A DNA stretch of 64,000 bases from an archaeon. GTDB lineage: Archaea > Iainarchaeota > Iainarchaeia > Iainarchaeales > JAAZKV01. Position 1 is the first letter of the stretch. Every line of letters starts with the position of its first letter. Positions 10,548-39,225 of this stretch are shown one piece after another. Where the stretch lies: NCBI GenBank assembly GCA_041653195.1, contig JBAZFU010000001.1:70545-134544 (forward strand), read 5' to 3'. Made by a program: the position numbers and the translations under genes. Under the pieces are notes generated by a model, which saw only the letters and a list, made by a program, of their open reading frames with translations, did not search any database and was not told the origin of the DNA.

Positions 10548-12362
10548 ATGGCCGAAGAATACCTGAACCAATTGATGAAACAATTAAAGGAAAAAAGCGA
10601 ACCAGAGACGGAAAACGAAAAAATTCCCGACGCAGGCGTTAAACTTTCCGGAACAAAAAAAATAAGCCAAATAGAAGAGGAAATAATTGTCTCGGAAAAA
10701 AATGCCGACGAATCTTTTGTGAGAGCCCCCACCTATTCCGCAGAAACCGTCGAAAGCGAAGCGGAAGAAAAACAAAAAATTATGCCTGCACAGAGAATGA
10801 GTGCAAATGATGCCCTCTCTCCGCTAAAAAAAGAAATCAGTGAAGGAAGCGAACCAATACCCGACGCCGCGGAAAAAACGACTGCCGAAAAAGAAGTGGA
10901 AAAAAGTCAAAAAATAGAACTAAAGTCCTATGGAAAAGTAAAAATATTCAGGATACCGGAAAAACCGTTGCCGTACTACTTCATCCCGACTCCGCGCCCA
11001 ACCTCTGCAGAAAGAAAAATAATAAACACAATAAAAGAGGCAACAACAAGACTAATATCAATTGCGCCTTACAAAGTGCGCGACCCCGAACAAAGAAGAA
11101 TAGTTTACAAACAAAAAATAATCGAAATACTAAAAAACAGCCCTTCGCTCAAAGTGCCCGAAAGCAGAATAAATTTTTACGCCGAAGCCGTGGTAAGAGA
11201 AATGGTCGGATACGGAATAATTGACGACTTGATAAAGGACGACCAACTCGAAGAAATAATGGTAATCGGACCGAAACAACCCATCTACGTTTTCCACAGA
11301 GAATTCGAAATGATGAGCACCAACATAGAATTCTTTTCAGAACAAGAAATAGAGGACTTGGTAAACAAAATCGCAAGAGAAGTAGGAAGAAGAGTTGATG
11401 TTTCAGCGCCGCTACTTGATGCAAGACTTCCCGACGGAAGCAGAGTAAACGCAACAATACCTCCCGCGTCAATAAGCGGAGGAACACTCACAATAAGAAA
11501 ATTCAAGGCAGACCCCTACTCAATAATTGATTTAATAAAAATAGGAACTATTTCAAGCGAAGCGGCAGCATTCCTCTGGCTCTGCGTAGAAGGAATGAAT
11601 GTAAAACCGGCGAACATACTGATTTCGGGAGGAACCGGATCCGGAAAAACAACACTATTAAATATTTTAACCGCATTCGTTCCGGAAAGAGAAAGAGTAA
11701 TTACAATCGAAGACACTGCAGAATTAAGTTTGCCGCTAAAACACTGGATAAGAATGGAAGCAAGACCGCCCGGATTGGAAGGAACAGGCGAATTGAAAAT
11801 GGATATTCTTACAAAAAACTCTCTCCGAATGAGACCTGACAGAATAATTGTCGGAGAAGTAAGGCACGAAGAAGCATTCACGCTTTTCACCGCACTTAAC
11901 ACCGGCCACGACGGATGCATGGGAACGGTTCACGCAAACAGCCCACAGGAAACAATAATCAGGGTAACAAACCCGCCGATGAATGTCCCAAAAATAATGC
12001 TCAGCGGATTAGACATGATAATAATAGAACACAGACTGCACGACAGAAAAAAAGGAACAATAAGAAGGATAACCGAAATGGCGGAAGTTTACAACGCGCT
12101 TGAAGGGGACCCAAAAACAGAAACGATTTACAAATGGGACCCTGTAAAAGACTCGCTTGAAAGAACACTTGTAAACAGCAAGTATGTTAACAATCTCCAA
12201 ATATTCAGCGGACTAAACAAAGAACAAATCAACGCCGAAATAAACATAAGAAAAACTTTTTTAGACGAACTCACAAAACAAAATATTCGAAGCATTTTAG
12301 CCGTTTCATCAGCAACAAAAAAATTCTTGGAAAAAAGAGCCGAAGCGAGTGATTTGAAATGA
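10548..12362 (+). CDS. type IV filament assembly ATPase (TadA/FlaI/VirB11 superfamily)
   Basis: 604 aa; Walker A GGTGSGKTT; T2SS-E-like core; acidic N-terminal extension; followed by platform and pilin genes. Confidence 0.85.
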   Translation: MAEEYLNQLMKQLKEKSEPETENEKIPDAGVKLSGTKKISQIEEEIIVSEKNADESFVRAPTYSAETVESEAEEKQKIMPAQRMSANDALSPLKKEISEGSEPIPDAAEKTTAEKEVEKSQKIELKSYGKVKIFRIPEKPLPYYFIPTPRPTSAERKIINTIKEATTRLISIAPYKVRDPEQRRIVYKQKIIEILKNSPSLKVPESRINFYAEAVVREMVGYGIIDDLIKDDQLEEIMVIGPKQPIYVFHREFEMMSTNIEFFSEQEIEDLVNKIAREVGRRVDVSAPLLDARLPDGSRVNATIPPASISGGTLTIRKFKADPYSIIDLIKIGTISSEAAAFLWLCVEGMNVKPANILISGGTGSGKTTLLNILTAFVPERERVITIEDTAELSLPLKHWIRMEARPPGLEGTGELKMDILTKNSLRMRPDRIIVGEVRHEEAFTLFTALNTGHDGCMGTVHANSPQETIIRVTNPPMNVPKIMLSGLDMIIIEHRLHDRKKGTIRRITEMAEVYNALEGDPKTETIYKWDPVKDSLERTLVNSKYVNNLQIFSGLNKEQINAEINIRKTFLDELTKQNIRSILAVSSATKKFLEKRAEASDLK

Positions 12363-13465
12363 GCGGACTTGAACAGGGAAACTATTCAATAGACAAGGAA
12401 GAAGTGGACAGAATAGTCGAAGGAATGAAAAAAAAATACCAAGAAGAAGGAATGCACTTTGAAGAAGTTTCAGAAAACCTGCGCGAACTAAGAGGAATAA
12501 TTTCAGAAGAATCTTATTCAAAAATAGACATAGAAAGCGAATCGGATGTGGAAAACTTTGATTCCAAAGCAATGCAATTCTTCGGAAACCTTTACCTAAA
12601 AACAAGAGGAATACTCAAACCTATACAGGAATCACTCAAAAAACTCCCGTCAAACAAAGAACTGAGCTATTACCTCTACTCCGCAAATATGCAATACTCG
12701 TCAAACCAATATTTGGCAATATCAAGTGCGGTCGGGCTGCTCGCCGGCCTAATCATATTCGCATCAATATTATTAGTCGGAGCAATACTGCTAAGCCCGC
12801 TAATAGCAATACTTGCATTCCCCATGGCAATGTTTGCCGGAATAATCGCAACGGTAATAACCCTCATAATCCCAAAACAAAAGGCAACTGCAAGAGGCGA
12901 TGCGTGCTCGGTTGAACTGCCATTCGCTTTAAGACACATGGCAACCGAACTCAAAGCAGGAATCGGACTATACAAAACAATACAAGCTGTTGCGGCAGCG
13001 AATTACGGAGTGCTAAGCGAAGAATTTGCAAGAACAATAAATGAAATAGAAGAAGGAACAGACACAAGCCTCGCGCTCAGACACCTCGCACTAAGAACAC
13101 AAAGCAGACCGCTAAAAACTGCAATAATGCACATAATAAGAGCGATGAGAATCGGCGGAAACCTTTCAAATATAATAAATGAAATCGCAAACGATGTCTC
13201 GGAAGACCTGCGAAACAGAATAAACGCATTCTCCCAAAAAATGAATCTATTCTCGGTAATATTCATCTTCATCGGAATAGTTATGCCTGTAGGAATAACA
13301 ATACTCGGCGCAATAAGAAACTCGCCAATAACGAGCGGCGGACAGGAACTGTTTAGTGCGATTCCGCTCACACCTCCAATAATGATAATATTTTACTTAG
13401 TCGCAATGCCATCACTATTCATAATGCTAAATTTTATGATTTATGTAATGCAACCAAAAATGTGA
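12359..13465 (+). CDS. T2SSF-domain membrane platform protein (TadB-like, single domain)
   Basis: 368 aa; polytopic; 4-nt overlap with ATPase gene; one T2SSF-like cytoplasmic domain (EFARTINEIEEGTDTSLALRHLA). Confidence 0.7.
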   Translation: MSGLEQGNYSIDKEEVDRIVEGMKKKYQEEGMHFEEVSENLRELRGIISEESYSKIDIESESDVENFDSKAMQFFGNLYLKTRGILKPIQESLKKLPSNKELSYYLYSANMQYSSNQYLAISSAVGLLAGLIIFASILLVGAILLSPLIAILAFPMAMFAGIIATVITLIIPKQKATARGDACSVELPFALRHMATELKAGIGLYKTIQAVAAANYGVLSEEFARTINEIEEGTDTSLALRHLALRTQSRPLKTAIMHIIRAMRIGGNLSNIINEIANDVSEDLRNRINAFSQKMNLFSVIFIFIGIVMPVGITILGAIRNSPITSGGQELFSAIPLTPPIMIIFYLVAMPSLFIMLNFMIYVMQPKM

Positions 13466-14391
13466 AACAAAAAAGGGATGTTATGAATTTAGTAGAAGAA
13501 TATACATCATGGATAGAATTCAGCAGAATACCAATAAAGGCACCCGTGTGGGTTGCGATGTCAATAATAGTTGCAGGCCTTGTAGGAGGACTTTCTCTTG
13601 TAATGACCTTCATTATACTTCATGAAGTAACACTGCTTCCGGTAGCATTCGCAATAGCAACACTGGTATTACTCCTCGGCTACCCTTACATGAAAACCGA
13701 ATCCATAATAGACTCTATCGAAAAAAATTTCAGCGACGCACTCAAACAAATGGCAGACACTCTAAAAGCAGGAGACACTTATGAAAGCGCGCTACGCGAA
13801 GTAGCGAATGCGGAATATGGAAGACTCTCGGAAGAAATGGACTCCGCACTCAGAAGACTGGAAGAAGGAGAAAATCTTGAAACATCACTAACAGGCTTCG
13901 CTGAAAAAGTAAATTCAAAACTTGTTAGAAGAACAATGACAATAATACTTGATTCTATAAGAACCGGGGCAAGCCTCGCGGACATACTTGACGAAATATC
14001 CGATGATGTACGAGCCATAGAAAGAATAAAAGAAGAAAGAAAATCAAACACCACAATGCAATTCATGTTCATGGCGCTGGCGGGCGGATTAATAGCCCCT
14101 GCAATATTCGGCGAAGTAAACAGCGTGATGACGATATTTTCAAAAGTTTCACTAAAAATGCTTGCAACAAGCCAACTCGAAGCAAGCCAACAGGTTACAA
14201 ACTTAATATTGCTATTAATACAATCCTATTTGATAATTGAGGTTGTAGCATCAGGCGCAATGATGTCAATAATAAGAGAAGGAAAGTTGAACAAAAGCGT
14301 TATATATATCCCACTCCTATTATTGCTTGCTTTCATAGCATACTACGCCACTAGAGCGGGAACTGCCGCACTAATAGGGAGCGCAGTGTGA
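13462..14391 (+). CDS. T2SSF-domain membrane platform protein (TadC-like, single domain)
   Basis: 309 aa; paralog of the preceding gene (YGRLSEEMDSALRRLEEGENLETSL); 4-nt overlap. Confidence 0.7.
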   Translation: MKQKRDVMNLVEEYTSWIEFSRIPIKAPVWVAMSIIVAGLVGGLSLVMTFIILHEVTLLPVAFAIATLVLLLGYPYMKTESIIDSIEKNFSDALKQMADTLKAGDTYESALREVANAEYGRLSEEMDSALRRLEEGENLETSLTGFAEKVNSKLVRRTMTIILDSIRTGASLADILDEISDDVRAIERIKEERKSNTTMQFMFMALAGGLIAPAIFGEVNSVMTIFSKVSLKMLATSQLEASQQVTNLILLLIQSYLIIEVVASGAMMSIIREGKLNKSVIYIPLLLLLAFIAYYATRAGTAALIGSAV

Positions 14392-14435: not shown

Positions 14436-14576
14436 ATGGAAGAAAGAGCACAAATAAATTTAGAGTACCTGTTAATAATCGCGGGAGCAGTAGTAGTAGC
14501 AACCACTGTGGGATTGTTCATAAAACAAAGCGCGTCCGCAATAACAAGTTCCGCTCAAGAACAGGCACAGAACTAA
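14436..14576 (+). CDS. small Flp/Epd-like pilin (46 aa), class III signal peptide
   Basis: Not in ORF track (<60 aa). MEERAQINLEYLLIIAGAVVVATTVGLF...; GAGG RBS 8 nt upstream; Q-x-x-x-EY motif followed by a hydrophobic helix. Confidence 0.6.
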   Translation: MEERAQINLEYLLIIAGAVVVATTVGLFIKQSASAITSSAQEQAQN

Positions 14577-14680: not shown

Positions 14681-14944
14681 ATGAAAGGAAGAGGACAAGG
14701 ATCGCTGGAGTACCTGCTCATAATCGGAGCAGCACTAATAATCGCGATAATTGTAATTGCAGTAGTAACCGGACTTGGTTCAAACAATGCTCCACCAACA
14801 AGTGATGTTCAGGCACAAGCCGATGTTGGAAAATGCCTAAACAATTGTTGTGAATTTGGAATAAATTCTGATAAAAACTGTGAAACAATAAATCCTGCTG
14901 CATGCCAATTGCCAGACAATAACAGCAACTGGAAGGGCTGTTAA
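14681..14944 (+). CDS. class III signal-peptide pilin with Cys-rich C-terminal module
   Basis: 87 aa; MKGRGQGSLEYLLIIGAALIIAIIVIAVV; AAAGGAGG RBS; C-terminus has 6 Cys including the CLNNCC motif. Confidence 0.7.
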   Translation: MKGRGQGSLEYLLIIGAALIIAIIVIAVVTGLGSNNAPPTSDVQAQADVGKCLNNCCEFGINSDKNCETINPAACQLPDNNSNWKGC

Positions 14945-15099
14945 AAAAAATATTCTATTTCGGGATGACGCCCAAGAATAAGCATTTTTGGGCGCCATTT
15001 CTAATTTTTTTAAATTTTCAACCATAAATATTTTCCAATTTTTTATCCCGATTGCATTAAGGCAAATGTTTAAAAACTAGAAAAGCGTTATAGAACACA

Positions 15100-15591
15100 A
15101 TGGACAAACGCGGACAAGGCGCACTAGAGTACCTGCTCATAATCGGAGCAGCGCTGGTAATTGCAATAATAGTTATTTCTGTAATAGTTTTGACTGGGAC
15201 ATCTACTGACACAAGCGCCTCAACATCAAGTGCAGCAAACAAGTTGGACCAAACGAACTGTCTAAACGACTGCTGCTACAAAAGCAAAACAAGCGACCAA
15301 AACTGCGAAACAATACTTTCAAATTACTGCGCAATACCTCCTGCAAGCAGCGACGACTCGAATACTTACAAATATGAAAACTATTACAAGGAATGCGTTC
15401 CGAATTTCGTGAGAGGGGGCGATATAGCAAAATGTACTGCCACTATAAGCGGGTGCTGCTACAATGCTCCAACAACCGATAAAAACTGCGACTTAATAAT
15501 TCCAAGCGTTTGTATAGGTCCGACAAATTGCGCGGATTTGCCGACACAACCAGAAATAGACGCGTGCGACGCCAGATACCAAGGCTGCTAA
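15100..15591 (+). CDS. class III signal-peptide pilin with large Cys-rich C-terminal domain
   Basis: 163 aa; MDKRGQGALEYLLIIGAALVIAIIVISV; 16 Cys; shares the CLNDCC motif with neighbours. Confidence 0.7.
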   Translation: MDKRGQGALEYLLIIGAALVIAIIVISVIVLTGTSTDTSASTSSAANKLDQTNCLNDCCYKSKTSDQNCETILSNYCAIPPASSDDSNTYKYENYYKECVPNFVRGGDIAKCTATISGCCYNAPTTDKNCDLIIPSVCIGPTNCADLPTQPEIDACDARYQGC

Positions 15592-15689
15592 CATTAGGCT
15601 TAAATTATTCTTTCTGCAACAGAAACTATTTTTGTTTGCACCAAAACCATAAACACAATCTTTAAATACCTGAATGAATTATTATTAGC

Positions 15690-16046
15690 ATGGAAAAATC
15701 AAAACGCGGACAAGGTGCAATAGAGTACCTGCTTCTTCTAGCTGCAGGAGTAATAGTAGTTGCAGTAGTGATGATATTTTTAATTAACTCAACAACCGTT
15801 GGAAAAGAAAGCGGTTGCGCCGGTTTAAACACGTATTTGTGCGACAACTTAGACTCTAATACCGAGACCTGCGCATGCTATACCGGAAATGCAAACGGCT
15901 ACTGGTCAAGTTTGGATTGTAATACCAGTGTCTGCAAAGGACAACAAGCTTCTGTGTGCTGCAATAAGGACTGTACAGAACTCAACAGCAAGTGGAAGGA
16001 TACGAACAGCCAGTTAGGACCAACAAGTCCAAAACTTTGCGGATAA
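15690..16046 (+). CDS. class III signal-peptide pilin with Cys-rich C-terminal domain
   Basis: 118 aa; MEKSKRGQGAIEYLLLLAAGVIVVAVV; 10 Cys. Confidence 0.7.
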   Translation: MEKSKRGQGAIEYLLLLAAGVIVVAVVMIFLINSTTVGKESGCAGLNTYLCDNLDSNTETCACYTGNANGYWSSLDCNTSVCKGQQASVCCNKDCTELNSKWKDTNSQLGPTSPKLCG

Positions 16047-16065: not shown

Positions 16066-16243
16066 AATGTTTGAAGAAGAAAGAGCGCAAGTTTCTTTCG
16101 AATACCTACTCACAGCAGTCTTTGGAATAATGCTCGCGATAAGCGCCGCAATAATCATAGAAACTCTAAGAGAAATCGCATTGCGTGCACAGGCAGACAT
16201 ACTAACCACAAGAGAAGAAGTAATCACGAATATAATGGAATAA
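16066..16243 (+). CDS. small Flp/Epd-like pilin (59 aa)
   Basis: ATG at 16066 inside the longer ORF 15992..16243; MFEEERAQVSFEYLLTAVFGIMLAISAAII; paralog of the 14436 gene (ERAQxxxEYLL). Confidence 0.55.
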
Positions 16244-16317: not shown

Positions 16318-17439
16318 ATGTTTCTAGCACTTCCAATAATCGCCTCGATAATTGGGCTTCTGGGCGCGACCTACACGGACCTTAAAGAAAGAATAGTGCC
16401 AAACAAGCTGAATTACGGGCTGGCAATTACGGGAATATTATTATATTCTGCGCAAAGCGTAATCGAATCAAACGCGACCCCTGTTCTTTATTCAATTGGG
16501 GGGCTCGCCGCAGGATTCGTATTCGGATGGGCCCTGTGGAAAATCGGAGTATTTGCCGGAGGAGACGTAAAATTATTTGCCGGACTCGGAGCACTTAACC
16601 CAGTAACCCCCTTCATCGCACAAACGCTTCTGCCTATTCAAATTTCTTATATTCAAATTCCTTTCATTTTTCCGATAACTCTTTTCATAAATTCATTAGT
16701 AGCATTCCTTCCATACGGACTAATAGTATTGCTTTACAAATTATCAAAAAACAAAAAATTTCAAAAAAAAATAGCAGCCGAAATGCTTACAAAAACAAAA
16801 CAAGCAATACACCTCGCTCTTTTTTCCGCCGCAACCTATACCATACTGACAGCCCTTTCAATAAACCCGATTATTTCAATCGCCATCGTAATAATTTGGA
16901 GCCTTACTAGAAACCTCAAAAAAATAATCACTGCAATTGCTTCAATAGCGGCAATTTCACTAAATTTTTCTGTATTTGGACAGGCTTTTGTAGCAATCGC
17001 CATTGTGACTGTAATACTTTACGGAATAATCAAACTGCTTTTTTCATTAAGACCGCTGTTATCAAAAGAAGTTTTGATTACTCGCCTTGAAGAGGGAATG
17101 ATTCCTGCAGACACTTTTGTGAAAAAAGACGGCAAAATAATAATTGCTGAAAAAATTTCGTTCAAACAAATAATTAAATACGCGAAAACACAAAAGATAA
17201 GTGAAATGGTAAAAGAATTCTCCTTACAGAAAAAGGAAATTATTTCTGCAAACAGGGCCAGGGGGCTCACTTTGAAAGAAATTGCAATTGTAAAAAAATT
17301 TGCAAAAGAAGGAAAAATGCCAAAAAAAATAACCATAAAAGAATCGATGCCATTTGTTCCGACAATGATGCTCGGTTACCTGCTCTGCATGGCCGCAGGA
17401 GACTTTATAATAATGACTTTGCTGAAGGTGATTTTTTGA
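16318..17439 (+). CDS. A24-family prepilin/preflagellin peptidase (PibD/FlaK/EppA-like) with C-terminal extension
   Basis: 373 aa; catalytic-Asp motifs TYTDLKERIVPN and FAGGDVKLFAGLGA; polytopic membrane protein. Confidence 0.75.
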   Translation: MFLALPIIASIIGLLGATYTDLKERIVPNKLNYGLAITGILLYSAQSVIESNATPVLYSIGGLAAGFVFGWALWKIGVFAGGDVKLFAGLGALNPVTPFIAQTLLPIQISYIQIPFIFPITLFINSLVAFLPYGLIVLLYKLSKNKKFQKKIAAEMLTKTKQAIHLALFSAATYTILTALSINPIISIAIVIIWSLTRNLKKIITAIASIAAISLNFSVFGQAFVAIAIVTVILYGIIKLLFSLRPLLSKEVLITRLEEGMIPADTFVKKDGKIIIAEKISFKQIIKYAKTQKISEMVKEFSLQKKEIISANRARGLTLKEIAIVKKFAKEGKMPKKITIKESMPFVPTMMLGYLLCMAAGDFIIMTLLKVIF

Positions 17440-17897
17440 AACGCGGACAAACATCAATCGAGTTCATAATAATAATTTTGATAGTTGTGTTGTTTGTAAT
17501 AACTACTACAAAGCCGCTGATTGAAAACGCCAAAGGGATAACTGAGGACATTGTAAATATTACAAGAGCAAACAGCGAAACAAAACGAATTGCCAATGCC
17601 GCAACGGAAATATCTCTAATGGGCGTCAGTTCAAAAAAAACAATCGAAGTTTCTATTCCTGCAAAAGCAACACTGCACTGCTACCAAGACAAAAATGTCG
17701 GATTTACTGTTGAATTACAAGTTCCGCCTTATCCAAAAGACTGCAATAACGGGATATGCGACAAAAATATTCTAACGCCAACATCATTCAACGGCAGTTC
17801 GCCAATTTCGTGCAATTCGCAATTCGAAAATATAAAAGGTCAAAAAACGATAGTAATTGAAAAGGACGATGAATCAAAAATTTCAATACACCCGTAA
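17436..17897 (+). CDS. class III signal-peptide (pilin-like) protein
   Basis: 153 aa; MKRGQTSIEFIIIILIVVLFVI; 4-nt overlap with peptidase gene. Confidence 0.6.
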   Translation: MKRGQTSIEFIIIILIVVLFVITTTKPLIENAKGITEDIVNITRANSETKRIANAATEISLMGVSSKKTIEVSIPAKATLHCYQDKNVGFTVELQVPPYPKDCNNGICDKNILTPTSFNGSSPISCNSQFENIKGQKTIVIEKDDESKISIHP

Positions 17898-17920: not shown

Positions 17921-18271
17921 ATGAAACAAAAGGGACAAACAAATTTCGAGGCGCTGATACTGCTTCTACTGGTAATAAGCTCCGCAATATTCATATCCGC
18001 GCTTTACTTTCAAACCCATGACATCACAATTGCAACGGCCATTGCAAGAAATGATATTTTAAAACAACTCAATTCAATCGATGAACAGATTGAGATAGAA
18101 AGCGTAAAAGTAACTGTGAATTCGTTAAAAGACGCAAATATAAATATTAAAACTTCTCCAGAAACCGTTTATTCATCGAATCTTGATTCGGAAAAACTCG
18201 CGGAAACCGCTGCAAAAATAAAATCCGACACCTCATTCAATCACATACTAATTAAAATTAACGACAACTAG
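17921..18271 (+). CDS. class III signal-peptide (pilin-like) protein
   Basis: 116 aa; MKQKGQTNFEALILLLLVISSAIFI. Confidence 0.6.
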   Translation: MKQKGQTNFEALILLLLVISSAIFISALYFQTHDITIATAIARNDILKQLNSIDEQIEIESVKVTVNSLKDANINIKTSPETVYSSNLDSEKLAETAAKIKSDTSFNHILIKINDN

Positions 18272-19865: not shown

Positions 19866-20243
19866 ATGGGTTGGAAAATAAAAAAAAATGTAATTGAAGC
19901 CATTATGGCCGCCTCAAAAGCCGCCTACCCAAATGAATTTGTTACATTACTTAGCGGAAGCGAAAAAGAAAAAATAGTTGATGAATATGCGATGTTGCCT
20001 GGAGACAGCGGGCCAACATTTGCTACGGTCGGCGGATGGGGCCTTGACGCCTACCCTGTAGACGAAAAATTAATAGGAAGCGCGCATTCTCATCCTTCCA
20101 ATTCAAATTTGCCAAGCATAGCGGACAAAAAATTCTTCAAGCAATACTTCTTAAACACCATAATTTGCGCCCCCTTTGAGATTCAAAATTTTGCTTTTTA
20201 CAACGCAAACGGGGAAAAAATAGGGGTTGAAATCATTGAATAG
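19866..20243 (+). CDS. JAMM/MPN-domain metalloprotease
   Basis: ATG at 19866; JAMM motif E...HSHPSNSNLPSIAD (H-x-H-x7-S-x2-D); about 125 aa. Confidence 0.7.
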   Translation: MGWKIKKNVIEAIMAASKAAYPNEFVTLLSGSEKEKIVDEYAMLPGDSGPTFATVGGWGLDAYPVDEKLIGSAHSHPSNSNLPSIADKKFFKQYFLNTIICAPFEIQNFAFYNANGEKIGVEIIE

Positions 20244-20277
20244 CAAGTTTAAAAAAAACAAAAAGCATTATCTCTGC

Positions 20278-20709
20278 ATGAAAAAAGGGCAGGTCAGCAT
20301 GGATTTCATGATTGCGGCGTTAATCGCAATAATTACAATCGGTTCCTTCCTAATAGTTGTTGAAAATTTTCGCGACGATTACGAAAAAATGTTTGTACAA
20401 AATCAACTCAAACAAATTTCTTCCAAAATAAGCTCTTTTGCAACCTCTTCCCAGGGAATGAATGGAACACAATTCAGAGTTGAAACACGACTTCCAAAAG
20501 TAATCTACAAAAACAGCACAATTCTTCCAACAATAAAATTTAATGACGCGCACACAAACGTGGACGTTAATGTTACAATAACAACCGCTTCCTCGGAAGG
20601 TTCAAAAAGCGAAATTCTAAGTTCAACAGCGTATTTCACAATTCCAGAAAACGCTAACATTGACATAAATCAACAAACATACCAATGGGTGGTAATAACA
20701 CGTGAATAA
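20278..20709 (+). CDS. class III signal-peptide (pilin-like) protein
   Basis: Internal ATG 20278; MKKGQVSMDFMIAALIAIITIGSFLIVV. Confidence 0.55.
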   Translation: MKKGQVSMDFMIAALIAIITIGSFLIVVENFRDDYEKMFVQNQLKQISSKISSFATSSQGMNGTQFRVETRLPKVIYKNSTILPTIKFNDAHTNVDVNVTITTASSEGSKSEILSSTAYFTIPENANIDINQQTYQWVVITRE

Positions 20710-21748
20710 AGGACAAATAACTACGATTGACTTCCTAATTTCAATGGCCCTTGTAATTTTCTGCGTTGGGGCAATAATGGGTTTTGCAGAACTTCAAACC
20801 TACAAAATAAAATCCGAAATAAAAGAAAACGCTCTCGTGGAAAAAGCGGACGCCGCACTCATAGTTCTTGCAAGCGGGACTGAGACGGGCTGCCTTTTGG
20901 GCGATCATAATCTTGCATATTCTTTCAATACAAGCGTTGCGAATATGAGCGACGCGGAATTAAAAAAAATATTTGGAATAGGCGCAAACGAAGATTATAA
21001 TCTCGAACTTAAAGTTGGAGAAACCACAATAATTAGCGAACAATTGAACGGAAAAAATATTATTGCGACCGATATAAACCTGCTCGTCTGCAATAATCCA
21101 AATATAAGCGGGCCAATAAGTCTTTGGCGCCTAAACAATAACACAAACGACAGCAATATCCAAACAATGAACAATCTGTTAAGCAACACTGCGAATTGGG
21201 TTACTGGAAAAGACGGCAACGCGTTAAAGTTCAATGGCGCAAACGATTATGCTGAAAAACCCAATGCATCAAAGTTGCCTCTTGGCAATGGCGCAAGAAC
21301 AATTGCACTGTGGATAAAACCAAAAATAGTTGGAACTGACCAAGGGATTATAGGCTACGGCAACAGCGGCGAAGTTTTTGCAATAATAATAAGCGCGAAT
21401 AAATGGGCACTCTTCACAGGCACAAATACTTCAACATTTGGCAACCCGATAATTACCGAAAAATGGTATCAGATTGTTTTAACATACGGGGGCGGGAACG
21501 ATGTGAACACATATGTTAACGGAGAATTTAAACAAACTGTTTCTCTCGGCGGCATTCCATTGAACACTGCCAACTCCAATTTGACAATTGGGAGATTTAC
21601 TACAAGCACTGACAAATATTTCAACGGAACACTAGACGAAATCAGCATTTGGAGCAGGGCTCTAAGCCAAGAAGAAATAAGGACACTTTATCTTGCAAAT
21701 TTGTACGAAGTAACGCGCGAAAAGGCAGTTTTAAAGGTGAGCGGATGA
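20702..21748 (+). CDS. pilin-like protein with C-terminal LamG/concanavalin-A-like lectin domain
   Basis: 348 aa; MNKGQITTIDFLISMALVIFCVGAIMGF; LamG signatures (LWRLNNNTND, NGANDYAEKPNASKLPLGNGARTIALWIKP, YQIVLTYGGGNDVNTYVNGEF, NGTLDEISIWSRALSQEEI). Confidence 0.7.
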   Translation: MNKGQITTIDFLISMALVIFCVGAIMGFAELQTYKIKSEIKENALVEKADAALIVLASGTETGCLLGDHNLAYSFNTSVANMSDAELKKIFGIGANEDYNLELKVGETTIISEQLNGKNIIATDINLLVCNNPNISGPISLWRLNNNTNDSNIQTMNNLLSNTANWVTGKDGNALKFNGANDYAEKPNASKLPLGNGARTIALWIKPKIVGTDQGIIGYGNSGEVFAIIISANKWALFTGTNTSTFGNPIITEKWYQIVLTYGGGNDVNTYVNGEFKQTVSLGGIPLNTANSNLTIGRFTTSTDKYFNGTLDEISIWSRALSQEEIRTLYLANLYEVTREKAVLKVSG

Positions 21749-22029
21749 AAAAAAACTGCGGATTCATATTTTCAGCAGAAGCACTGATTTCGATAGCATT
21801 GCTTATTGTAGCAGCAACAATCATAATCAATGCTTCGCAAAGCGCCGATAACTACCAGAAAAACTTTTTCAAACAGCGCGCCGAAAACGATGCTGCAATG
21901 GGAGTTTATTTCAATGATTCTAACAAAATTCCAACAGGTTTAGAGAATAATATTTCCTGCAAAAAAATCACCGATTACAATTCAGATGCAAAAGTTTTTG
22001 AAAAAGAATTTTGTGAGGGTGCGCAATGA
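21745..22029 (+). CDS. pilin-like small protein (class III signal peptide-like N-terminus)
   Basis: ATG 21745 overlapping the stop of the LamG pilin (ATGA); MKKNCGFIFSAEALISIALLIVAATIII. Confidence 0.5.
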   Translation: MKKNCGFIFSAEALISIALLIVAATIIINASQSADNYQKNFFKQRAENDAAMGVYFNDSNKIPTGLENNISCKKITDYNSDAKVFEKEFCEGAQ

Positions 22030-22427
22030 AAAAAAACTTTAACAGGGGCTTCGCATCAGTACTCGCAATACTGGCAGTGTTCACCGTTGCAATAATCTTA
22101 TTGAATCGGAGTTATCAGGAAACAAGTTCGCCAGATTTCAAAGGCAACTTTTCCGAAACAGCACTCTTCCTAACGACCTACGAGCTTAGCATTGAACGGG
22201 CAATCTCAGACTGCGACCCAATCAGAAATACTAACACTTGTTTAACAGACTATAATGATCAAATAATCGCCTCAAGCGCGCCAAAAAATACTCATTGCCG
22301 AACATTTTTCTCAGATGAAGCGAACAACAGAATCCGAATAATACTTGACTGCACTACACTCGTCGAAGACGACAAATCAATAGTTTTTAGAAATCAATTC
22401 AGAAAAACGTTTTTCATAACCAGATAG
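22026..22427 (+). CDS. pilin-like small protein
   Basis: 133 aa; MKKNFNRGFASVLAILAVFTVAIILL; ATGA overlap with previous gene. Confidence 0.5.
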   Translation: MKKNFNRGFASVLAILAVFTVAIILLNRSYQETSSPDFKGNFSETALFLTTYELSIERAISDCDPIRNTNTCLTDYNDQIIASSAPKNTHCRTFFSDEANNRIRIILDCTTLVEDDKSIVFRNQFRKTFFITR

Positions 22428-29373: not shown

Positions 29374-30912
29374 TCAGCTGAAATGCTTTGAAACAAGCGA
29401 AAGCACCTTATTCGGTTGGAAATAATAGTCCTGAATAACTTCAAGAACCTCTTCCGGCTTTCTTATTTTCTTTTCAAACATCCACTCAAGAATTTTTTGG
29501 CGCATCAAAATTTCCTGCTTTAACTCGTTTTTTGAAATCGCGTTGGAGTTGGCCATCTTCTCAATTATGCCGCTGGGCAAATCCGTTTTCTTGACAACAT
29601 TCGCAGTTTTATCCCACTCAAAAATATTCGCAAGCAAAACCCTGCTCTCCATCCTAGAAACTTCTGCAACCTCTAAAACATTTCTCTGCATTCCACCACT
29701 GCCCGAATGGTGTCTGCCAAGCACAACAATTAAATCGATGAGCGGGAGGAGCGCCTGAGGAACAGACATTGGAGGCTCCTGCAAACGAATAATAGCTTCT
29801 CGAGCATCATTAGCATGAATTGTCCCCATAACCCCATCATGACCGGTATCCATCGCAATAAACATTGTAAGCGCTTCATTGCCCCTAACTTCCCCCACAA
29901 GTATCCTGTCCGGACGCATTCTCAAAGAATTCTTTAACAAATCATTCATCGAAACTTCTTCATCAACAGAACTTCTTGCTTCCAAAGGAACCCAATTCTT
30001 TCTATCCAAAAGAGAAAGCTCTAAAGTGTCTTCAATTGAAACAATTCTATTATTTATTCGAATAAAATTAGCTAAAACATTAAGGAAAGTAGTTTTTCCT
30101 GTTGCAGTTCCTCCAGTTATCAAAATATTTGCAGGAGAAACATCGAACCCGTCAACCATTGCCCACAAAAAAGCTGCTAACTCGAAATTAAGAGTTCCGG
30201 ATTCAATCAAATCAATAACTGTAAGCGGAATAGGCGAAAATTTTCTTATTGTCAAAGAAATTCCACGCGGAGAAACATCACTAAAAGTCGCATTGACCCT
30301 GCTCCCGTCCGGCAAGCGCGCATCAAGCAAAGGGCTCTTCGAATCAAATTTTTTCCCGACACTTGAAGCAACTCTTTGAAGAATCACTCCAAAAGATTTT
30401 TCATCAATGGCCATGCTCGCCTTGCACATACCATACTGCTTATGAAAAACAAAAACATTATCCATCCCGTTAACCATCAGCTCTTCCAACGAATCATCCA
30501 ACAAAAAAAAAGCAAACTGCTTCAAACCAATAGAATTTTGAAGAACAACGCCTGCAAAAAGTTCCTTGTTGGAAACAAAATTTATTTGATTGAGGCATTT
30601 CACCAGTGCATTGAAAAGATCAGAAAAAACTTTATTTGAAGGAAGCTTCTCAAGAAGCGAATTTATTTCAACAATAGAAATTACTTCCTCCCTGAACGCT
30701 GTCGAAAATTCTTCGCCCGCACCTTCAAAATCGGAAAGTTCCTTAAATGAAGCTTTTCTTTGAATTACTCTTTCAAGCAAATCCATGAAAGCCTGCTCCG
30801 CTCCGGCAAAAGGCATCTGCGCAACTTCGTAAAAATTCTGAGGAAACCCCTCATAAACATCCCCAAACGGAGAAGAGGAAAGCTTTTTCCCTTTAGATTC
30901 GTTAAGAGTCAT
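29374..30912 (-). CDS. second type IV filament/secretion ATPase (PilB/FlaI/TadA superfamily), orphan
   Basis: 512 aa; Walker A GGTATGKTTFLN; RMRPDRILVGEVRGNEA box; paralog of the 10548 ATPase but no neighbouring platform or pilin genes. Confidence 0.8.
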   Translation of the reverse strand: MTLNESKGKKLSSSPFGDVYEGFPQNFYEVAQMPFAGAEQAFMDLLERVIQRKASFKELSDFEGAGEEFSTAFREEVISIVEINSLLEKLPSNKVFSDLFNALVKCLNQINFVSNKELFAGVVLQNSIGLKQFAFFLLDDSLEELMVNGMDNVFVFHKQYGMCKASMAIDEKSFGVILQRVASSVGKKFDSKSPLLDARLPDGSRVNATFSDVSPRGISLTIRKFSPIPLTVIDLIESGTLNFELAAFLWAMVDGFDVSPANILITGGTATGKTTFLNVLANFIRINNRIVSIEDTLELSLLDRKNWVPLEARSSVDEEVSMNDLLKNSLRMRPDRILVGEVRGNEALTMFIAMDTGHDGVMGTIHANDAREAIIRLQEPPMSVPQALLPLIDLIVVLGRHHSGSGGMQRNVLEVAEVSRMESRVLLANIFEWDKTANVVKKTDLPSGIIEKMANSNAISKNELKQEILMRQKILEWMFEKKIRKPEEVLEVIQDYYFQPNKVLSLVSKHFS

Positions 30913-33209: not shown

Positions 33210-33282
33210 TGGACCGTGGGGGATTCGCACCCCCGACCACGCCGTTGCGAACGGCGGATCATAACTGCTAGACCAACGGCCC
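33210..33282 (-). tRNA. tRNA-Ala (anticodon CGC)
   Basis: Manual fold: acceptor GGGCCGT/ACGGTCC with G3:U70; anticodon stem CGCCG/CGGCG, loop TTCGCAA; T-arm GGGGG-TGCGAAT-CCCCC; 73 nt. Confidence 0.8.
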
Positions 33283-34410
33283 TGGCAATATCTTACCTGT
33301 TTCGCAGAACTCTTTATATTTGTTTAGAATTCTTGGGTTGCTACTGCCAATTAGTTCAAACCACTTGTGTGTGTTTTCTATGCCTCTAACACTTACACTT
33401 TCCGCATGAACAAATGCCTTAATTCCCTGTTTCAAAAGTATTTCTTTTATTTGATTTCGCAAAACTGGGCTGTAAGAACAAATTGTCACATAAGGATACC
33501 TGAATCGCTCATCCTTTCTTGCATTCATGTGACCATCTGTATCAAGCAAACCTCTAATCACAAAATTCAAGTTCTCAGTTTTAAGGCTTAAAAAATTATT
33601 CGAGATTCCGAAATCTTTTGGCTTTCCATTTGTATGATAACCATTGCTTAAAAGCCATTCATAAAATAGCCTACTGCTGAATTGAAGACGCACTGAATTA
33701 TCTTTACGAAAAAATATTGCCGGCTTAATTGGGAAATACTTTCTAATTATCGCATCAAGATACTTAACGTATTCTACGTCTTTTTTTGCGTTCCCAACAA
33801 TTGCCCCGTGATAAACATATTGCCCAGAGCTTTTTGAAAAATATTTCCCACAATGGCCATCGCCCAGCATTGCCCCAAATAATTCACACAATTCTGGATT
33901 TGCAATATCGGGAAAACCGTCATAAGTTTCCCAAGTTATTTTCTTCTTACAAGACCTAACTTTTTTTAGGTGCTTTCTAAACCCGCTTTCCCCCAAACAC
34001 TTTTTCATAGTTCTTATTGAATTTGTTCCGCCTTTTTTGGCGCCCCAATTATTTGGCAAAAAATTTATCTGTTTTAAAAATTCAAATTTTTGTTCAGTAG
34101 GCAAATAATTCAATAACCCGAAGAAAACTCTCGAAGGAAAAGTTATTTCGCCTCGCCTTATTCTCTTGAGACCTGTATTTCCAATGTTGAATTCTTTAAG
34201 CCATTCATTCCAAGAAACATACTTCTGAGAAGCTTTCGCAAGAGCAAATAACTTTCTCGGATTTGGAATTCGGACTCTCCGGTCGCTTTTATCCTCTTCC
34301 ATTTCAGATTTTTGTTTTTCTTCGTTTTTAACCGCATCGGAGCTTTCATGCCAGTCATTCATCAAAATCACCCTCCGAAAAGTTTTCCAAAATCCAGAGT
34401 TCCCTTCCAT
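33268..34410 (-). CDS. HTH + double-motif LAGLIDADG homing-endonuclease-like protein (paralog 1)
   Basis: 380 aa; LAGLIDADG motifs FGAMLGDGH and GLLDTDGHM; N-terminal HTH-like region; stop codon lies 15 nt inside tRNA-Ala 5' end. Confidence 0.65.
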   Translation of the reverse strand: MEGNSGFWKTFRRVILMNDWHESSDAVKNEEKQKSEMEEDKSDRRVRIPNPRKLFALAKASQKYVSWNEWLKEFNIGNTGLKRIRRGEITFPSRVFFGLLNYLPTEQKFEFLKQINFLPNNWGAKKGGTNSIRTMKKCLGESGFRKHLKKVRSCKKKITWETYDGFPDIANPELCELFGAMLGDGHCGKYFSKSSGQYVYHGAIVGNAKKDVEYVKYLDAIIRKYFPIKPAIFFRKDNSVRLQFSSRLFYEWLLSNGYHTNGKPKDFGISNNFLSLKTENLNFVIRGLLDTDGHMNARKDERFRYPYVTICSYSPVLRNQIKEILLKQGIKAFVHAESVSVRGIENTHKWFELIGSSNPRILNKYKEFCETGKILPGPLV

Positions 34411-36546: not shown

Positions 36547-37329
36547 CTAAAAATCACGTATTTTTAATAATTCATCAACTTTTTTGAACCATTTAATATC
36601 TTCACTACTTAGTTTCATTTTTTTTGAGTCTTTTTTTAACCTATTAAGCATTTTATGAATATCTTCCTGAAAAGCAGATCTATCTTTTTCAGGATAGAAT
36701 TTGGCATACCTTATGCGCATTTCTACAGAATAAACAAATTTAAGCACTCCTGACCAATATGTGACCAAAGGTCTATCGCCATCCATGCTAATATCCATAG
36801 AACCTTTTCGCAGAGGAAGCTTAGTTCTTTCAATAATCCATTTATTCGCTTGAGCCAAAAGAAGCAAATCATAATCTAAATCAATCAAAGAATACAAATG
36901 AAGCTCTTTATCATTTTTTAAAGGAAAAAGAAAAATTCGCCACTTATCTTCCTCCGAATCTTTAAATACTCCATAACTGAAAGAATGAGTAAGTTTTCTG
37001 ATTATTTTCTTTTCATTTTTATCATACGCAACGAATGCGTTTAATCCAAGATATGGGTTAATATATCCAAGGAACCCCGAATTTTCTCCAATAATCATTT
37101 GGGTATTAATTAATACCGATACCACATCTTCTGCTATTTTTTGAACTTGTTCTTTGGCAGACTCTTTTGAATATAACACATTTAACGAAACATTAATCCA
37201 TTCAAAATTTAGGTCCGGGGCAACAATTTTTATGGCTTCTTCATTTTTTTCTAATTTTGGGTCATCCAAATTATTTGTTTTTTTGAAAAAATCAAATGCG
37301 CCCATTAAATCAACTCCTTTTTGTGCCAT
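36547..37329 (-). CDS. hypothetical protein
   Basis: 260-aa ORF; no recognisable motif; lies between the LAGLIDADG paralog/tRNA-Gly and the repeat cassette. Confidence 0.45.
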   Translation of the reverse strand: MAQKGVDLMGAFDFFKKTNNLDDPKLEKNEEAIKIVAPDLNFEWINVSLNVLYSKESAKEQVQKIAEDVVSVLINTQMIIGENSGFLGYINPYLGLNAFVAYDKNEKKIIRKLTHSFSYGVFKDSEEDKWRIFLFPLKNDKELHLYSLIDLDYDLLLLAQANKWIIERTKLPLRKGSMDISMDGDRPLVTYWSGVLKFVYSVEMRIRYAKFYPEKDRSAFQEDIHKMLNRLKKDSKKMKLSSEDIKWFKKVDELLKIRDF

Positions 37330-38374
37330 TATGCGGCTTACGGGAATTGAACCCGTTCATCCACCTTGGGAAGGTGGAATCATACCAGTAGACCAAAGCC
37401 GCTTTGAATGGTTCTTCAACTTGCAAGCCAGTTATTTCACTCCAAATACATTCCTTTAATGGAATTTCCCCCGTTTCAATGAAATACTTGTAGCGCATAA
37501 TATTTTTAGGGTTTGCACAACCCACCAACGTTAAGAACCGATGCACTTCCTCTTGCCTTTGAATTCTCACATTAACATCACTTTTTGAAGGAGCGAATCC
37601 AATTTGCCAGAGCATTTGATAAAGATTTGACCTTATTTGAGGAGAATCAGTTTGAAATTCTATTATTAATCTTTTATACTTTTTCTGTTTTTGATAAATT
37701 CCCCCATCTGTGTCCAAAAGCCCTCTCAACGCACCATAAATATATACGTCTTTTTCAAAAATCCATCGTGGAAGAGATACCTTATTTTTTATTTTATCTC
37801 CCAAAACAAGCGAGTTTTTGAGCAAAAATTTTACTAACTCTGTTGAGTTTACTTTCAATTGCATCGCGTTTGAATTTTTTAACCGAAATATCTTAGAGCT
37901 CAAACCAAAAAGCTGCTTAATCATATTTTGCAAATATTTGTAATGTTCAATTTCATAAAAATTGCCAGTTATTGTAAGTGTTTTCGAATCAATATGCCCA
38001 TCGCCCAGAATTACTCCGAAAAGCTCCGCTAATTTTTCACTTTTCTCAGGCACTTTAATATTCTTTTTATTTTTACCGCCACCCAATTCCTGCCCCCAGT
38101 TTTTGGCAAGGGTTTTTTCCACCCACTTTTTTCTAATCACAACCCAACTTTCAAAAGGGTGTTTTGCTAAAAGCCTTTTTGCATAGCTCAGCGGAATCGT
38201 AGTGCGTTCTTTTCTCCAATCTATTCTAATAGTGTGTTCTGACAAATTCAACTCTTTTGCTAAAGCAATCCATGTCAAGCCGCTTTTTTTCTTAATCTGT
38301 TCAATAAACTTTCTTTGCAATCCTTTCTTGAACTTGACTCGTTCTTCCCTGATTAGTTCGCCAACTTTCCTCAT
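37310..38374 (-). CDS. HTH + double-motif LAGLIDADG homing-endonuclease-like protein (paralog 2)
   Basis: Start taken at Met61 (ATG 38374) of ORF 37310..38554; motifs FGVILGDGH and GLLDTDGGI; N-terminal region aligns with paralog 1; reading frame continues through the whole tRNA-Gly(CCC) before the stop. Confidence 0.6.
   Translation of the reverse strand: MRKVGELIREERVKFKKGLQRKFIEQIKKKSGLTWIALAKELNLSEHTIRIDWRKERTTIPLSYAKRLLAKHPFESWVVIRKKWVEKTLAKNWGQELGGGKNKKNIKVPEKSEKLAELFGVILGDGHIDSKTLTITGNFYEIEHYKYLQNMIKQLFGLSSKIFRLKNSNAMQLKVNSTELVKFLLKNSLVLGDKIKNKVSLPRWIFEKDVYIYGALRGLLDTDGGIYQKQKKYKRLIIEFQTDSPQIRSNLYQMLWQIGFAPSKSDVNVRIQRQEEVHRFLTLVGCANPKNIMRYKYFIETGEIPLKECIWSEITGLQVEEPFKAALVYWYDSTFPRWMNGFNSRKPHNGTKRS
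37332..37402 (-). tRNA. tRNA-Gly (anticodon CCC)
   Basis: Manual fold: acceptor GCGGCTT/AAGCCGC; anticodon stem CCACC/GGTGG, loop TTCCCAA; T-arm ACGGG-TTCAATT-CCCGT; 71 nt. Confidence 0.8.
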
Positions 38375-38470
38375 AAGAAAATATTTTTGTGCGAATTTTA
38401 TATTTGCTTCTGGACTGCCGTGCCGGTGACCGGCCAAATTTGTAAAATGATCACAAAAAGAGCAAATAAA

Positions 38471-38502
38471 GGAATTGAACCCTACCACTAGACTACGGCT
38501 GC
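38471..38502 (-). pseudogene. internally deleted tRNA-like fragment (acceptor 5' strand GCAGCCG + D-arm fused to T-arm-like GGGTTCAATTCC)
   Basis: Minus: GCAGCCGTAGTCTAGTGGTAGGGTTCAATTCC; 5' strand complementary to the acceptor 3' strand of fragment 35268-35301; T-arm identical to the tRNA-Gly(CCC) T-arm. Confidence 0.4.
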
Positions 38503-38514
38503 AAAATAAATTCC

Positions 38515-39225
38515 TTAAATTTTTTCCCAATAATATATCGAAACCCACAAGCAATACGGGGAAGGGGTAAACGCCCTCTCCGGCGGCTTAATCTCCCTAA
38601 AGCCATCCGGCACTTTTAGTGAGGGATTGCGTTCCTGCGTATTGAACAAAAATCTTCCGCCCTTTTTTAAAACTTTTGAAATTCCAGAAATCGCTTTCTT
38701 TTGGTCATAGGCATGCTCAACTCCAAGAGTGGAACAAACAAAATCAAGGGACTCCGGAGCAAAATACTTTGATATTTTTGACGCTTCCATAACCCGCCAC
38801 CTAATTTTGCCGCTGTTCTTCCAAGTTTTCCAAACTGGACTTCTTTTCAAGCCGGTAACTGAAAGATTTATTTTTCCGCCAATTTTTTCATACAAATCGT
38901 TTGCCAAACGCCCTGTTCCGCCACCAACCTCCAACACATTCAACCCGCCCCCGTTTTTTGCTGAAACTTTTTTTATTTCATGAAAAAGATCCACTCCAAA
39001 AAACATTTGCGAATCCCTTAAGGAAAGATTAAACGAACCGTTCCACCCCAACGTACTGTCCAATTGCCTTGCTTCCCTATGGCAGATTGCGAGCCTTTTC
39101 CTGACTTTCCAATCCTCAGTAATTGCGCCATATAACCCTTTGCCTGGAAATCTTCGCTTGGAATTCTCTTCGGCAACACGCGTCAATCTTGCCCTTTCAA
39201 TAGGGCTAATTTTTTTAACCACCAT
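38515..39225 (-). CDS. class I SAM-dependent methyltransferase
   Basis: 236 aa; motif I LNVLEVGGGTGRLANDL. Confidence 0.7.
   Translation of the reverse strand: MVVKKISPIERARLTRVAEENSKRRFPGKGLYGAITEDWKVRKRLAICHREARQLDSTLGWNGSFNLSLRDSQMFFGVDLFHEIKKVSAKNGGGLNVLEVGGGTGRLANDLYEKIGGKINLSVTGLKRSPVWKTWKNSGKIRWRVMEASKISKYFAPESLDFVCSTLGVEHAYDQKKAISGISKVLKKGGRFLFNTQERNPSLKVPDGFREIKPPERAFTPSPYCLWVSIYYWEKI

Follow-up and report, generated by a model that had tools for sequence, protein, structure and literature searches.

Three small genes rich in cysteine (Cys) codons lie close together in a 64,000-nucleotide stretch of DNA (the window) from an uncultured archaeon of the Iainarchaeota, a DPANN lineage (kingdom Nanobdellati). 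These open reading frames (ORFs), termed g1, g2 and g3, are all on the + strand inside a complete operon for an Epd/Tad-like type IV pilus, whose genes all lie on one strand (Table 1). The T2SSE gene, both T2SSF genes and the Peptidase_A24 gene are on the same strand and within 4 kb, so that the three genes are encoded together with pilus machinery. The same locus has been assembled from two further data sets. A preliminary description of this DNA, made from the sequence, had proposed pilin-like proteins with Cys-rich extracellular parts, and this is borne out by matches to the class III signal peptide family (PF04021) and by a Cys content of 11–12.5% beyond the hydrophobic helix, compared to 1.1% in the long ORFs of the window.

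Table 1. Components of the pilus operon and modules of g2 (coordinates are those of the window; lengths in amino acids, aa).
Feature	Coordinates	Strand	Length	Cys	Match or remark
Pilus assembly ATPase, TadA/FlaI-type secretion ATPase	10548..12362	+			Pfam T2SSE, E=1.2e-44
Platform protein 1, TadB/TadC-like	12359..13465	+			Pfam T2SSF, E=4.6e-20
Platform protein 2, TadB/TadC-like	13462..14391	+			Pfam T2SSF, E=1.2e-17
Position-A pilin, headless, Flp-like	14436..14576	+	46	0	PF04021, 24.3 bits
g1, position-B pilin	14681..14944	+	87	6	
Hairpin and T-run, candidate terminator	14962..15011	+			3′ of g1; -21.4 kcal/mol, z=-3.9
g2, position-B pilin	15100..15591	+	163	14	two knob modules in tandem
g2 module A, residues 54-99	15259..15396	+		6	C-3-CC-9-C-7-C-21-C; matches g1 tail, E=2e-7
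g2 module B, residues 112-163	15433..15588	+		8	C-6-CC-9-C-7-C-5-C-11-C-6-C; matches module A, E=2e-7
g3, position-C pilin	15690..16046	+	118	10	
Position-D short pilin-like protein	16067..16243	+	58	0	leader EERA/QVSFEYLL (slash, predicted cut)
Prepilin peptidase, long archaeal form, EppA-like architecture	16318..17439	+	373		Peptidase_A24, E=9.7e-15; Arc_PepC, E=3.1e-11
Position-E pilin	17436..17897	+	153		PF04021, 27.9 bits
Position-F pilin-like protein	17921..18271	+	116	0	leader MKQKG/QTNFE, then hydrophobic helix

The gene order is the same as in about 20 Iainarchaeota loci, which share the succession A, B, C, D, peptidase, E, F. In the related loci, position A holds a pilin of about 45 aa that lacks Cys and is kept at the same place, position B holds a pilin with the helix QGAIEYLLIIGAAILVVAIVI, in one to three copies, and the pilin at position C is about 105 aa long and contains EYLLLLAA and Y-x-Y-x-C...C-G-C-Y. 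Position D is a 53-aa protein that starts with RAQVSFEYLLTAVF; the D protein of the window has no match in a Pfam scan. Position E is a 150-aa pilin with orthologues in nearly every related locus, which have 4 Cys in nearly all cases and 5 in two, and the pilin-like protein at position F is also conserved. The ATPase shares 82% identity with its counterpart in a Candidatus Iainarchaeum metagenome-assembled genome (MAG; locus L003) and 64–80% with those of about 20 other MAGs labelled Iainarchaeum, “ainarchaeum”, Forterrea or only “archaeon”. After the Iainarchaeota and two Micrarchaeota MAGs, its next relatives are in Hydrothermarchaeota, Thermococcus and methanogens (Methanobrevibacter, Methanococci), at 44–55% identity. 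The NCBIfam FlaI and TadA models match the ATPase only below their cut-offs, and the FlaK and EppA equivalogs match the peptidase far below theirs. The peptidase is thus EppA-like in domain architecture only (A24 plus Arc_PepC), with 28.7 bits against an EppA equivalog (NF053826) cut-off of 450. Two platform genes together with many pilins characterize the archaeal “system 1” (Epd-type), which occurs in methanogens and some DPANN archaea (bioRxiv 10.64898/2026.04.22.720090), and the operon has two such genes, both matching T2SSF.

The preliminary description had noted nearly identical class III signal peptides on the three genes, and all three do exceed the PF04021 gathering score of 23.7 bits (34.3 for g1, 35.4 for g2 and 27.3 for g3). 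The leaders read RGQGSLEYLL in g1, RGQGALEYLL in g2 and RGQGAIEYLL in g3; the N-termini are MKGRGQGSLEYLL, MDKRGQGALEYLL and MEKSKRGQGAIEYLL, respectively, each followed by about 20 hydrophobic residues. With a slash for the predicted cut, the precursors read MKGRG/QGSLEYLLIIGAAL... (g1), MDKRG/QGALEYLL... (g2) and MEKSKRG/QGAIEYLL... (g3), which makes Glu the fifth residue past the cut in each. All seven pilin-like genes of the locus encode [GA]/Q-x3-E and then about 20 hydrophobic residues; therefore a cut before Gln would place the classical Glu at +5, with Gln at +1 as in Epd-type pilins. Beyond the signal peptide, Pfam and NCBIfam find nothing in the g1–g3 tails, and Flp_Fap is not among the Pfam hits at E≤0.1.

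Class III signal peptides are also found on archaeal surface proteins that are not part of pili. The three products could therefore be membrane-anchored, or belong to a short pseudopilus, like the Sulfolobus bindosome or the pseudopilins of type II secretion systems, and the ATPase does match the bindosome ATPase model, well below its cut-off. This is quite improbable, given that g1–g3 are far too small for binding proteins and that two platform genes, headless pilins and a long A24 peptidase make up the Epd-type “system 1” architecture.

The enrichment of Cys in the parts beyond the helix is significant in each protein (binomial P of 2e-5 for g1, 3e-10 for g2 and 3e-8 for g3). After its leader (MKGRG/Q), the Glu at +5 and the hydrophobic helix, g1 has a linker of about 20 aa and then a single 6-Cys knob with the spacing C-3-CC-9-C-7-C-11-C. 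Both halves of the g2 tail resemble the g1 tail (BLASTP E=2e-7 and 5e-6) and each other (E=2e-7), while g1 and g3 tails have no significant similarity (E=0.32). By these comparisons g1 and g2 are therefore paralogues that share the module C-x(3,6)-CC-x9-C-x7-C, and g3 has in common with them only the signal peptide, the helix and the Cys richness. Its own spacing is C-7-C-9-C-1-C-13-C-4-C-7-CC-3-C-21-C, with a core of Y-x-C...C-A-C-Y...C. The preliminary description had taken the genes as three tandem paralogues with 6, 16 and 10 Cys and a common C-L-N-D/N-C-C motif. The paralogy holds for g1 and g2, and a single paralogous trio is rejected on the E value of the g3 tail; the counts are right for g1 and g3, whereas g2 has 14; and the motif is present as CLNNCC in g1 and CLNDCC in g2 and is lacking in g3. 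To judge by homology and gene order, g1–g3 represent two families that hold two fixed positions of a conserved operon rather than three equivalent paralogues.

The two families were found with profiles built from the genes of the syntenic loci. Homologues in metagenomic genomes of DPANN archaea, which the preliminary description had suggested looking for, were found in this way. The named sources of family members are Diapherotrites, Iainarchaeum or “archaeon”, and they are annotated only as “class III signal peptide protein” or “hypothetical”. The position-B family is defined here by the helix QG[AS][IL]EYLLIIGAA, a gene between the position-A and position-C pilins, and a variable tail with its first Cys at mature residue 46–54. 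Both g1 and g2 belong to it by synteny and by their scores against the family profile (90 and 89 bits). The position-B profile search gave 357 relatives at E≤1, and 92 of the 115 newly found hits listed have an even number of Cys.

Within the position-B family, average identity is 81% over mature residues 1–26, compared to 26% over the tails. The tails in the loci are either short and free of Cys (54–62 aa in total) or extended with a Cys-rich knob, and by our tally every complete position-B gene is headless in 10 of 21 loci. Cys were counted in the best 120 profile hits and in the four signal-peptide hits of a word-index search with g2: 24 proteins have none, 2 have two, 50 have four, 44 have six, 1 has eight, 1 (g2) has fourteen, and 2 have an odd number. 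The first Cys is always at mature residue 46–54, and a C-x3-C comes next in 58 of 84 sequences; beyond that, the 84 sequences have 72 different Cys spacings. Conserved Cys spacing with variable sequence in between, another expectation of the preliminary description, is seen in close homologues. Two g1 homologues (P0058 and P0076) are 70% identical to g1, with the N-terminal 36 residues nearly unchanged and the tail about 54% identical, and have the Cys pattern C-3-CC-8-C-7-C-11-C, in which a spacing of 8 replaces the 9 of g1. Longer position-B relatives (the L030 ORF, P0080 and P0087) gave only the signal peptide in a Pfam scan. The L030 ORF (6221-7027, cut by the contig end) has a position-B-type N-terminus followed by more than 240 aa that are rich in Thr and Asn and include a C-x13-CC-x8-C motif, which shows that much larger displayed parts can be carried on the same core helix. 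A scan of viral contigs gave no relatives.

The position-C family is defined here by the helix EYLLLLAA and four invariant Cys (C...C-x-C-Y...C). Its profile search gave 107 hits, of which 96 are family members. The four Cys (C51, C61, C63 and C90 in g3 numbering) are invariant in 90 of 90 aligned members, g3 among them. There are 32 members with four Cys, 60 with six, 3 with eight and 1, an incomplete sequence, with an odd number. Cys beyond these four appear strictly in pairs. Members in which CGCY is followed by a further Cys, or in which C90 has a Cys next to it, also have a C-terminal Cys (39 and 20 members have both, 31 have neither, and none is discordant); C43 and C95 accompany each other in 2 of 2 members; and C77 and C82 lie in one short insertion found in g3 alone. 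The 10 Cys of g3 are the most seen in any member.

Two side observations concern the records of these families. The NCBI copies of g1 and g3 (P0023 and P0221) are labelled “Candidatus Izemoplasmatales bacterium”, which suggests that a short copy of the locus, itself clearly archaeal, was assigned to a bacterial MAG during binning; in record P0221, g3 is called 27 residues short (91 aa) and has lost its signal peptide. A Micrarchaeota MAG (L022) has a pilus locus with pilin-like proteins of 6 and 4 Cys (at about 10517 and 12912, - strand) that are unrelated in sequence to the Iainarchaeota families, and Cys-bearing pilins may thus be more general in DPANN archaea.

The Cys counts bear on the chemistry of the knobs. 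The number is even in 193 of 196 Cys-bearing family members (g1, g2 and the four word-index hits included): of the hits with at least one Cys, 98 are even and 2 odd at position B, and 95 are even and 1, the incomplete sequence, odd at position C. Counts change in steps of two within the families (2, 4, 6, 8, 10, 14), and the two g2 modules are each even, with 6 and 8. Since even counts, two-step changes and pairwise gain of Cys are expected from intramolecular disulfides and not from a Cys4 metal site, disulfide bonding is well supported, although not proven, in both families. Coordination of surface metal ions (Zn, Fe, Cu or others) by Cys clusters that form no disulfides would suit the high Cys density, the reducing habitats that the names of related MAGs suggest and the failure to find an oxidase among the window ORFs scanned. 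It is nevertheless the least probable of the alternatives considered here: the counts rise in twos and not in fours, Cys co-occurrence is strictly pairwise, there are no CxxC...CxxC pairs or conserved His, and no Pfam metal-binding family is matched.

Structure prediction does not favor a knottin- or EGF-like fold, which the preliminary description had raised. AlphaFold2, run with the family alignments, gave g3 a mean predicted local distance difference test score (pLDDT) of 77 and a predicted template modelling score of 0.53. The head (pLDDT of about 70–84) is modelled as all-helical, with four short helices (residues 39–54, 59–65, 80–91 and 96–109) after the N-terminal helix and no β sheet. 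The g2 model (mean pLDDT 66) is helix plus coil, and its module A has pLDDT of 73–86 over residues 41–80, where a helix leads into the first Cys and coil follows. Foldseek against the PDB gave no match for either model, and a PDB sequence search gave nothing significant. The knobs resemble knottin and EGF mini-domains in size (35–50 aa) and in having six Cys per module, whereas the predicted structure is helix or coil and not a β-hairpin knot.

The spacers bear on the origin of g2. In the two nearest relatives, L003 and L083, g2 is missing and the g1-like gene is directly followed by the g3-like gene. The L083 spacer between these two aligns with the g1–g2 spacer of the window, including a TATA-like element, GGCAAATGyTTAAAAACTAGAAAA, about 25 nucleotides 5′ of the ATG, which places g2 between a conserved promoter-like element and g3. 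This alignment fits a birth of g2 by tandem duplication of g1 with its downstream spacer. Together with the position-B copy number of one to three per related locus, it agrees with the diversification by tandem duplication that the preliminary description had envisaged. A recent duplication is rejected, as the synonymous divergence (dS) between g1 and g2 is 0.85–1.6.

Among family hits, g2 is the sole double-module member found. A full-length word-index search returned only g2 itself and proteins with the same signal peptide, and an exhaustive phmmer search of 1.84 billion representatives with the g2 tail returned only g2. The latter missed even g1, which puts a single 40-residue module beyond its reach, and its lack of homologues therefore means little. 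It could be argued that g2 is a decaying or non-functional duplicate, so that only g1 and g3 matter. The want of an orthologue in the word-index, phmmer and profile searches, the absence from the two nearest relatives, the low confidence of the module B model (pLDDT mostly below 50) and a GC content at third codon positions of 0.45, compared to 0.30 in g1, would all fit such decay. This explanation is unlikely, however, because the ORF is intact over 163 codons, the leader, Glu at +5 and helix are retained, the Cys number of each module is even, and NCBI, JGI and Logan, which are independent data sources, all have the identical protein. Moreover, the N-terminal part of g2 has a ratio of nonsynonymous to synonymous divergence (dN/dS) of 0.24 to g1 at dS 0.85, which indicates purifying selection since the duplication. 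By its intact frame, this ratio and the upstream promoter-like element conserved in L083, g2 is a maintained gene.

The tails change faster than the rest of the locus. Compared to the L083 orthologues, dN is 0.38 for the g1 tail and 0.31 for the g3 tail, while it is 0.15 for the A24 peptidase, 0.14 for position F, 0.10 for position E and 0.07 for the second platform protein, and spans 0.007–0.15 over the other genes of the locus. On these values the g1 and g3 tails are the fastest-evolving protein segments of the locus. No other gene of the operon is nearly as constrained as that of the position-D protein, which is identical in L083 at all 58 residues (58/58), at dS of about 1.1 and dN 0.008.

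Signals for expression surround the genes. A Shine-Dalgarno sequence (GGAGG) is 7 nucleotides upstream of the g1 ATG and a TTTAAAAA box is about 57 nucleotides upstream; none of 200 shuffles was as stable as the hairpin 3′ of g1, whose 3′ arm and T-run are conserved in L083. Both g2 and g3 have a TTTAAA[AT]A box 23–31 nucleotides 5′ of the ATG. An automated promoter scan used the sigma-70 consensus, performed at chance level and was disregarded, and a terminator scan missed the g1 hairpin. These signals fit separate and strong expression of g1–g3. The position-B family may behave like a variable major subunit, on the grounds of its conserved core helix, hypervariable tail and varying copy number, and of the promoter-like box, Shine-Dalgarno sequence and terminator-like hairpin that g1 has of its own.

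Taken together, g1–g3 are probably subunits of an Epd/Tad-like type IV pilus that displays disulfide-stapled surface knobs, and these knobs would set the surface properties of the filament. In such a pilus, the A24 peptidase of the operon would cut the precursors after the Gly of R-G/Q, so that Gln and Glu take positions +1 and +5. The hydrophobic N-terminal helices would then be raised from the membrane into the filament core by the ATPase and both platform proteins, and the short C-terminal parts would finish on the filament surface. For g1 and g2 the surface part would consist of a flexible linker of about 20 residues and one or two mini knobs of 35–50 residues with 3–4 disulfides each; for g3 it would be a small helical head with five disulfides, of which two are family-wide and three were added stepwise. 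The disulfides would let the knobs fold, because a domain of such size cannot have a hydrophobic core. The preliminary description had placed the Cys-rich parts at the pilus tip. Nothing points to the tip; in each subunit the Cys-rich part forms the head.

Several observations weigh against this picture. No exported thiol oxidase (DsbA, VKOR or thioredoxin-like) was found among about 57 window ORFs scanned, Diapherotrites genomes are reported to lack an electron transport chain (PMC8561730), and several related MAGs, judged from their names, come from anoxic settings (lake sediment, digesters). Module B of g2 is modelled with pLDDT mostly below 50. As far as sequence goes, the major subunit could just as well be the headless position-A pilin. 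Finally, tail dN/dS is below 1 (0.27 for the g1 tail) with dS about 1 or saturated, which amounts to fast evolution with no positive selection demonstrated.

It is plausible, in line with the adhesive or host-recognition modules suggested in the preliminary description, that the knobs decide what the filament binds, or what binds the filament, whether a host cell, a surface or a virus. A more far-reaching proposal, which we consider tentative and somewhat doubtful, is that position-B pilins form a hypervariable display scaffold, in which a near-invariant helix bears exchangeable knobs (absent, with 4 or 6 Cys, or double as in g2) that fix attachment to hosts or surfaces, or use by viruses. Knob diversity would arise from tandem duplication and the shuffling of modules, similar to antigenic variation in bacterial pilins. 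If true, this would imply an unrecognized route to extracellular disulfides in organisms without a respiratory chain.

The main rival to a role in recognition is a purely stabilizing one. The disulfides would merely stabilize the tiny heads of pilus subunits, tail diversity would reflect relaxed constraint, and the binding would be done elsewhere, for example by the pilin with a lectin domain at 20702-21748. That pilin is fused to a Laminin_G_3 domain 4 kb downstream, headless position-B pilins suffice in about half of the related loci, tail dN/dS stays below 1, and a single disulfide in a Pyrobaculum arsenaticum pilin has been interpreted as stabilizing (PMC7347861). Stabilization by itself leaves unexplained that knobs are kept on a long flexible linker, that position-B genes have been duplicated repeatedly, that the g2 module was doubled, and that Cys positions are kept while all between them changes. 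On balance a solely structural role has a minor but real share of the probability, comparable to that of the display scaffold.

Among the closest known systems is the Epd pilus of Methanococcus maripaludis (major pilin EpdE, peptidase EppA). It, too, combines a single ATPase and a pair of platform genes with several pilins, and has its own long A24 peptidase that includes an archaeal C-terminal domain. Mature pilins with Gln at +1 and the presence of short headless pilins are further points in common, whereas the peptidase is remote from the EppA equivalog. To our knowledge, no Epd pilin has been reported with a multi-disulfide head, and word-index, phmmer and profile searches detect no similarity of the present heads outside the Iainarchaeota. 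The pilins also resemble bacterial Flp/Tad pilins in their very short mature form, the G/x4-EY motif and TadA/TadB/TadC-type machinery; size and motif place g1–g3 alongside both Flp and EpdE. Bacterial Flp pilins lack a folded head and Cys knobs, and in contrast the proteins described here have knobs, an archaeal type of peptidase and no Flp_Fap match; the position-B profile does not significantly match Caulobacter PilA (8u1k, E=0.65).

In bacterial type IVa pilins (PilA/PilE), the D-region is a C-terminal, exposed, hypervariable segment that is closed by a disulfide and has a role in binding and antigenic variation. The Iainarchaeota pilins would share with it a variable, disulfide-closed, exposed C-terminal segment on a conserved pilin. 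The likeness is one of analogy and not of homology, as Foldseek and PDB sequence searches found no similarity of sequence or fold, and the D-region has one disulfide inside an α/β head, whereas here the whole head would consist of 2–7 disulfides.

Among archaea, multi-Cys components of type IV pili have been described in the hyperthermophilic Thermoproteales and read as disulfide-stabilized (PMC4858521), so that the characterization of Cys-rich pilins as atypical for archaea, made in the preliminary description, is only partly true. The Thermoproteales and P. arsenaticum pilins belong to hyperthermophiles and have normal β-rich heads with one or few disulfides, unlike the miniature heads with 11–12.5% Cys in the present DPANN archaeon, which we read as mesophilic. 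No description of Cys-rich pilins in DPANN archaea or Iainarchaeota was found in the searchable literature. The two families are undescribed but widespread in metagenomes, and apparently confined to Iainarchaeota. DPANN archaea are thought to depend on cell contact through molecules that are mostly unknown, and the pilins provide a concrete, sequence-defined candidate. They could also be a simple marker with which to relate types of pilus surface to hosts or habitats, and they raise the question of how up to seven Cys pairs per subunit would be oxidized in a cell that lacks an electron transport chain.

Four further pilin-like ORFs form a separate cluster at 20227-22427 (+). It comprises an ORF with the internal start MKKGQVSMDFMIAAL (20227-20709, +), the pilin that starts with MNKGQITTIDFLISMALV and carries the Laminin_G_3 lectin-like domain (20702-21748, +; E=2.9e-25), and two ORFs with N-terminal hydrophobic helices (21649-22029 and 22026-22427, +). 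The cluster looks like a minor-pilin or tip-adhesin set, and its lectin-domain pilin is a better candidate for a tip adhesin than g1–g3. Next to a second T2SSE-type secretion ATPase (29374-30912, -; E=8.7e-42), the ORF list and Pfam scans of the neighboring ORFs show neither a platform gene nor a pilin gene. Two ORFs with LAGLIDADG_3 matches abut or overlap tRNA genes: 33268-34410 (-; E=2e-5) at tRNA-Ala (33210-33282) and 37310-38554 (-; E=4e-8) at tRNA-Gly (37332-37402). Elsewhere the window contains ordinary archaeal housekeeping genes, including those for RFC, Nre, ABCE1, aRF1, the CCA-adding enzyme, Hjc and HerA/NurA.

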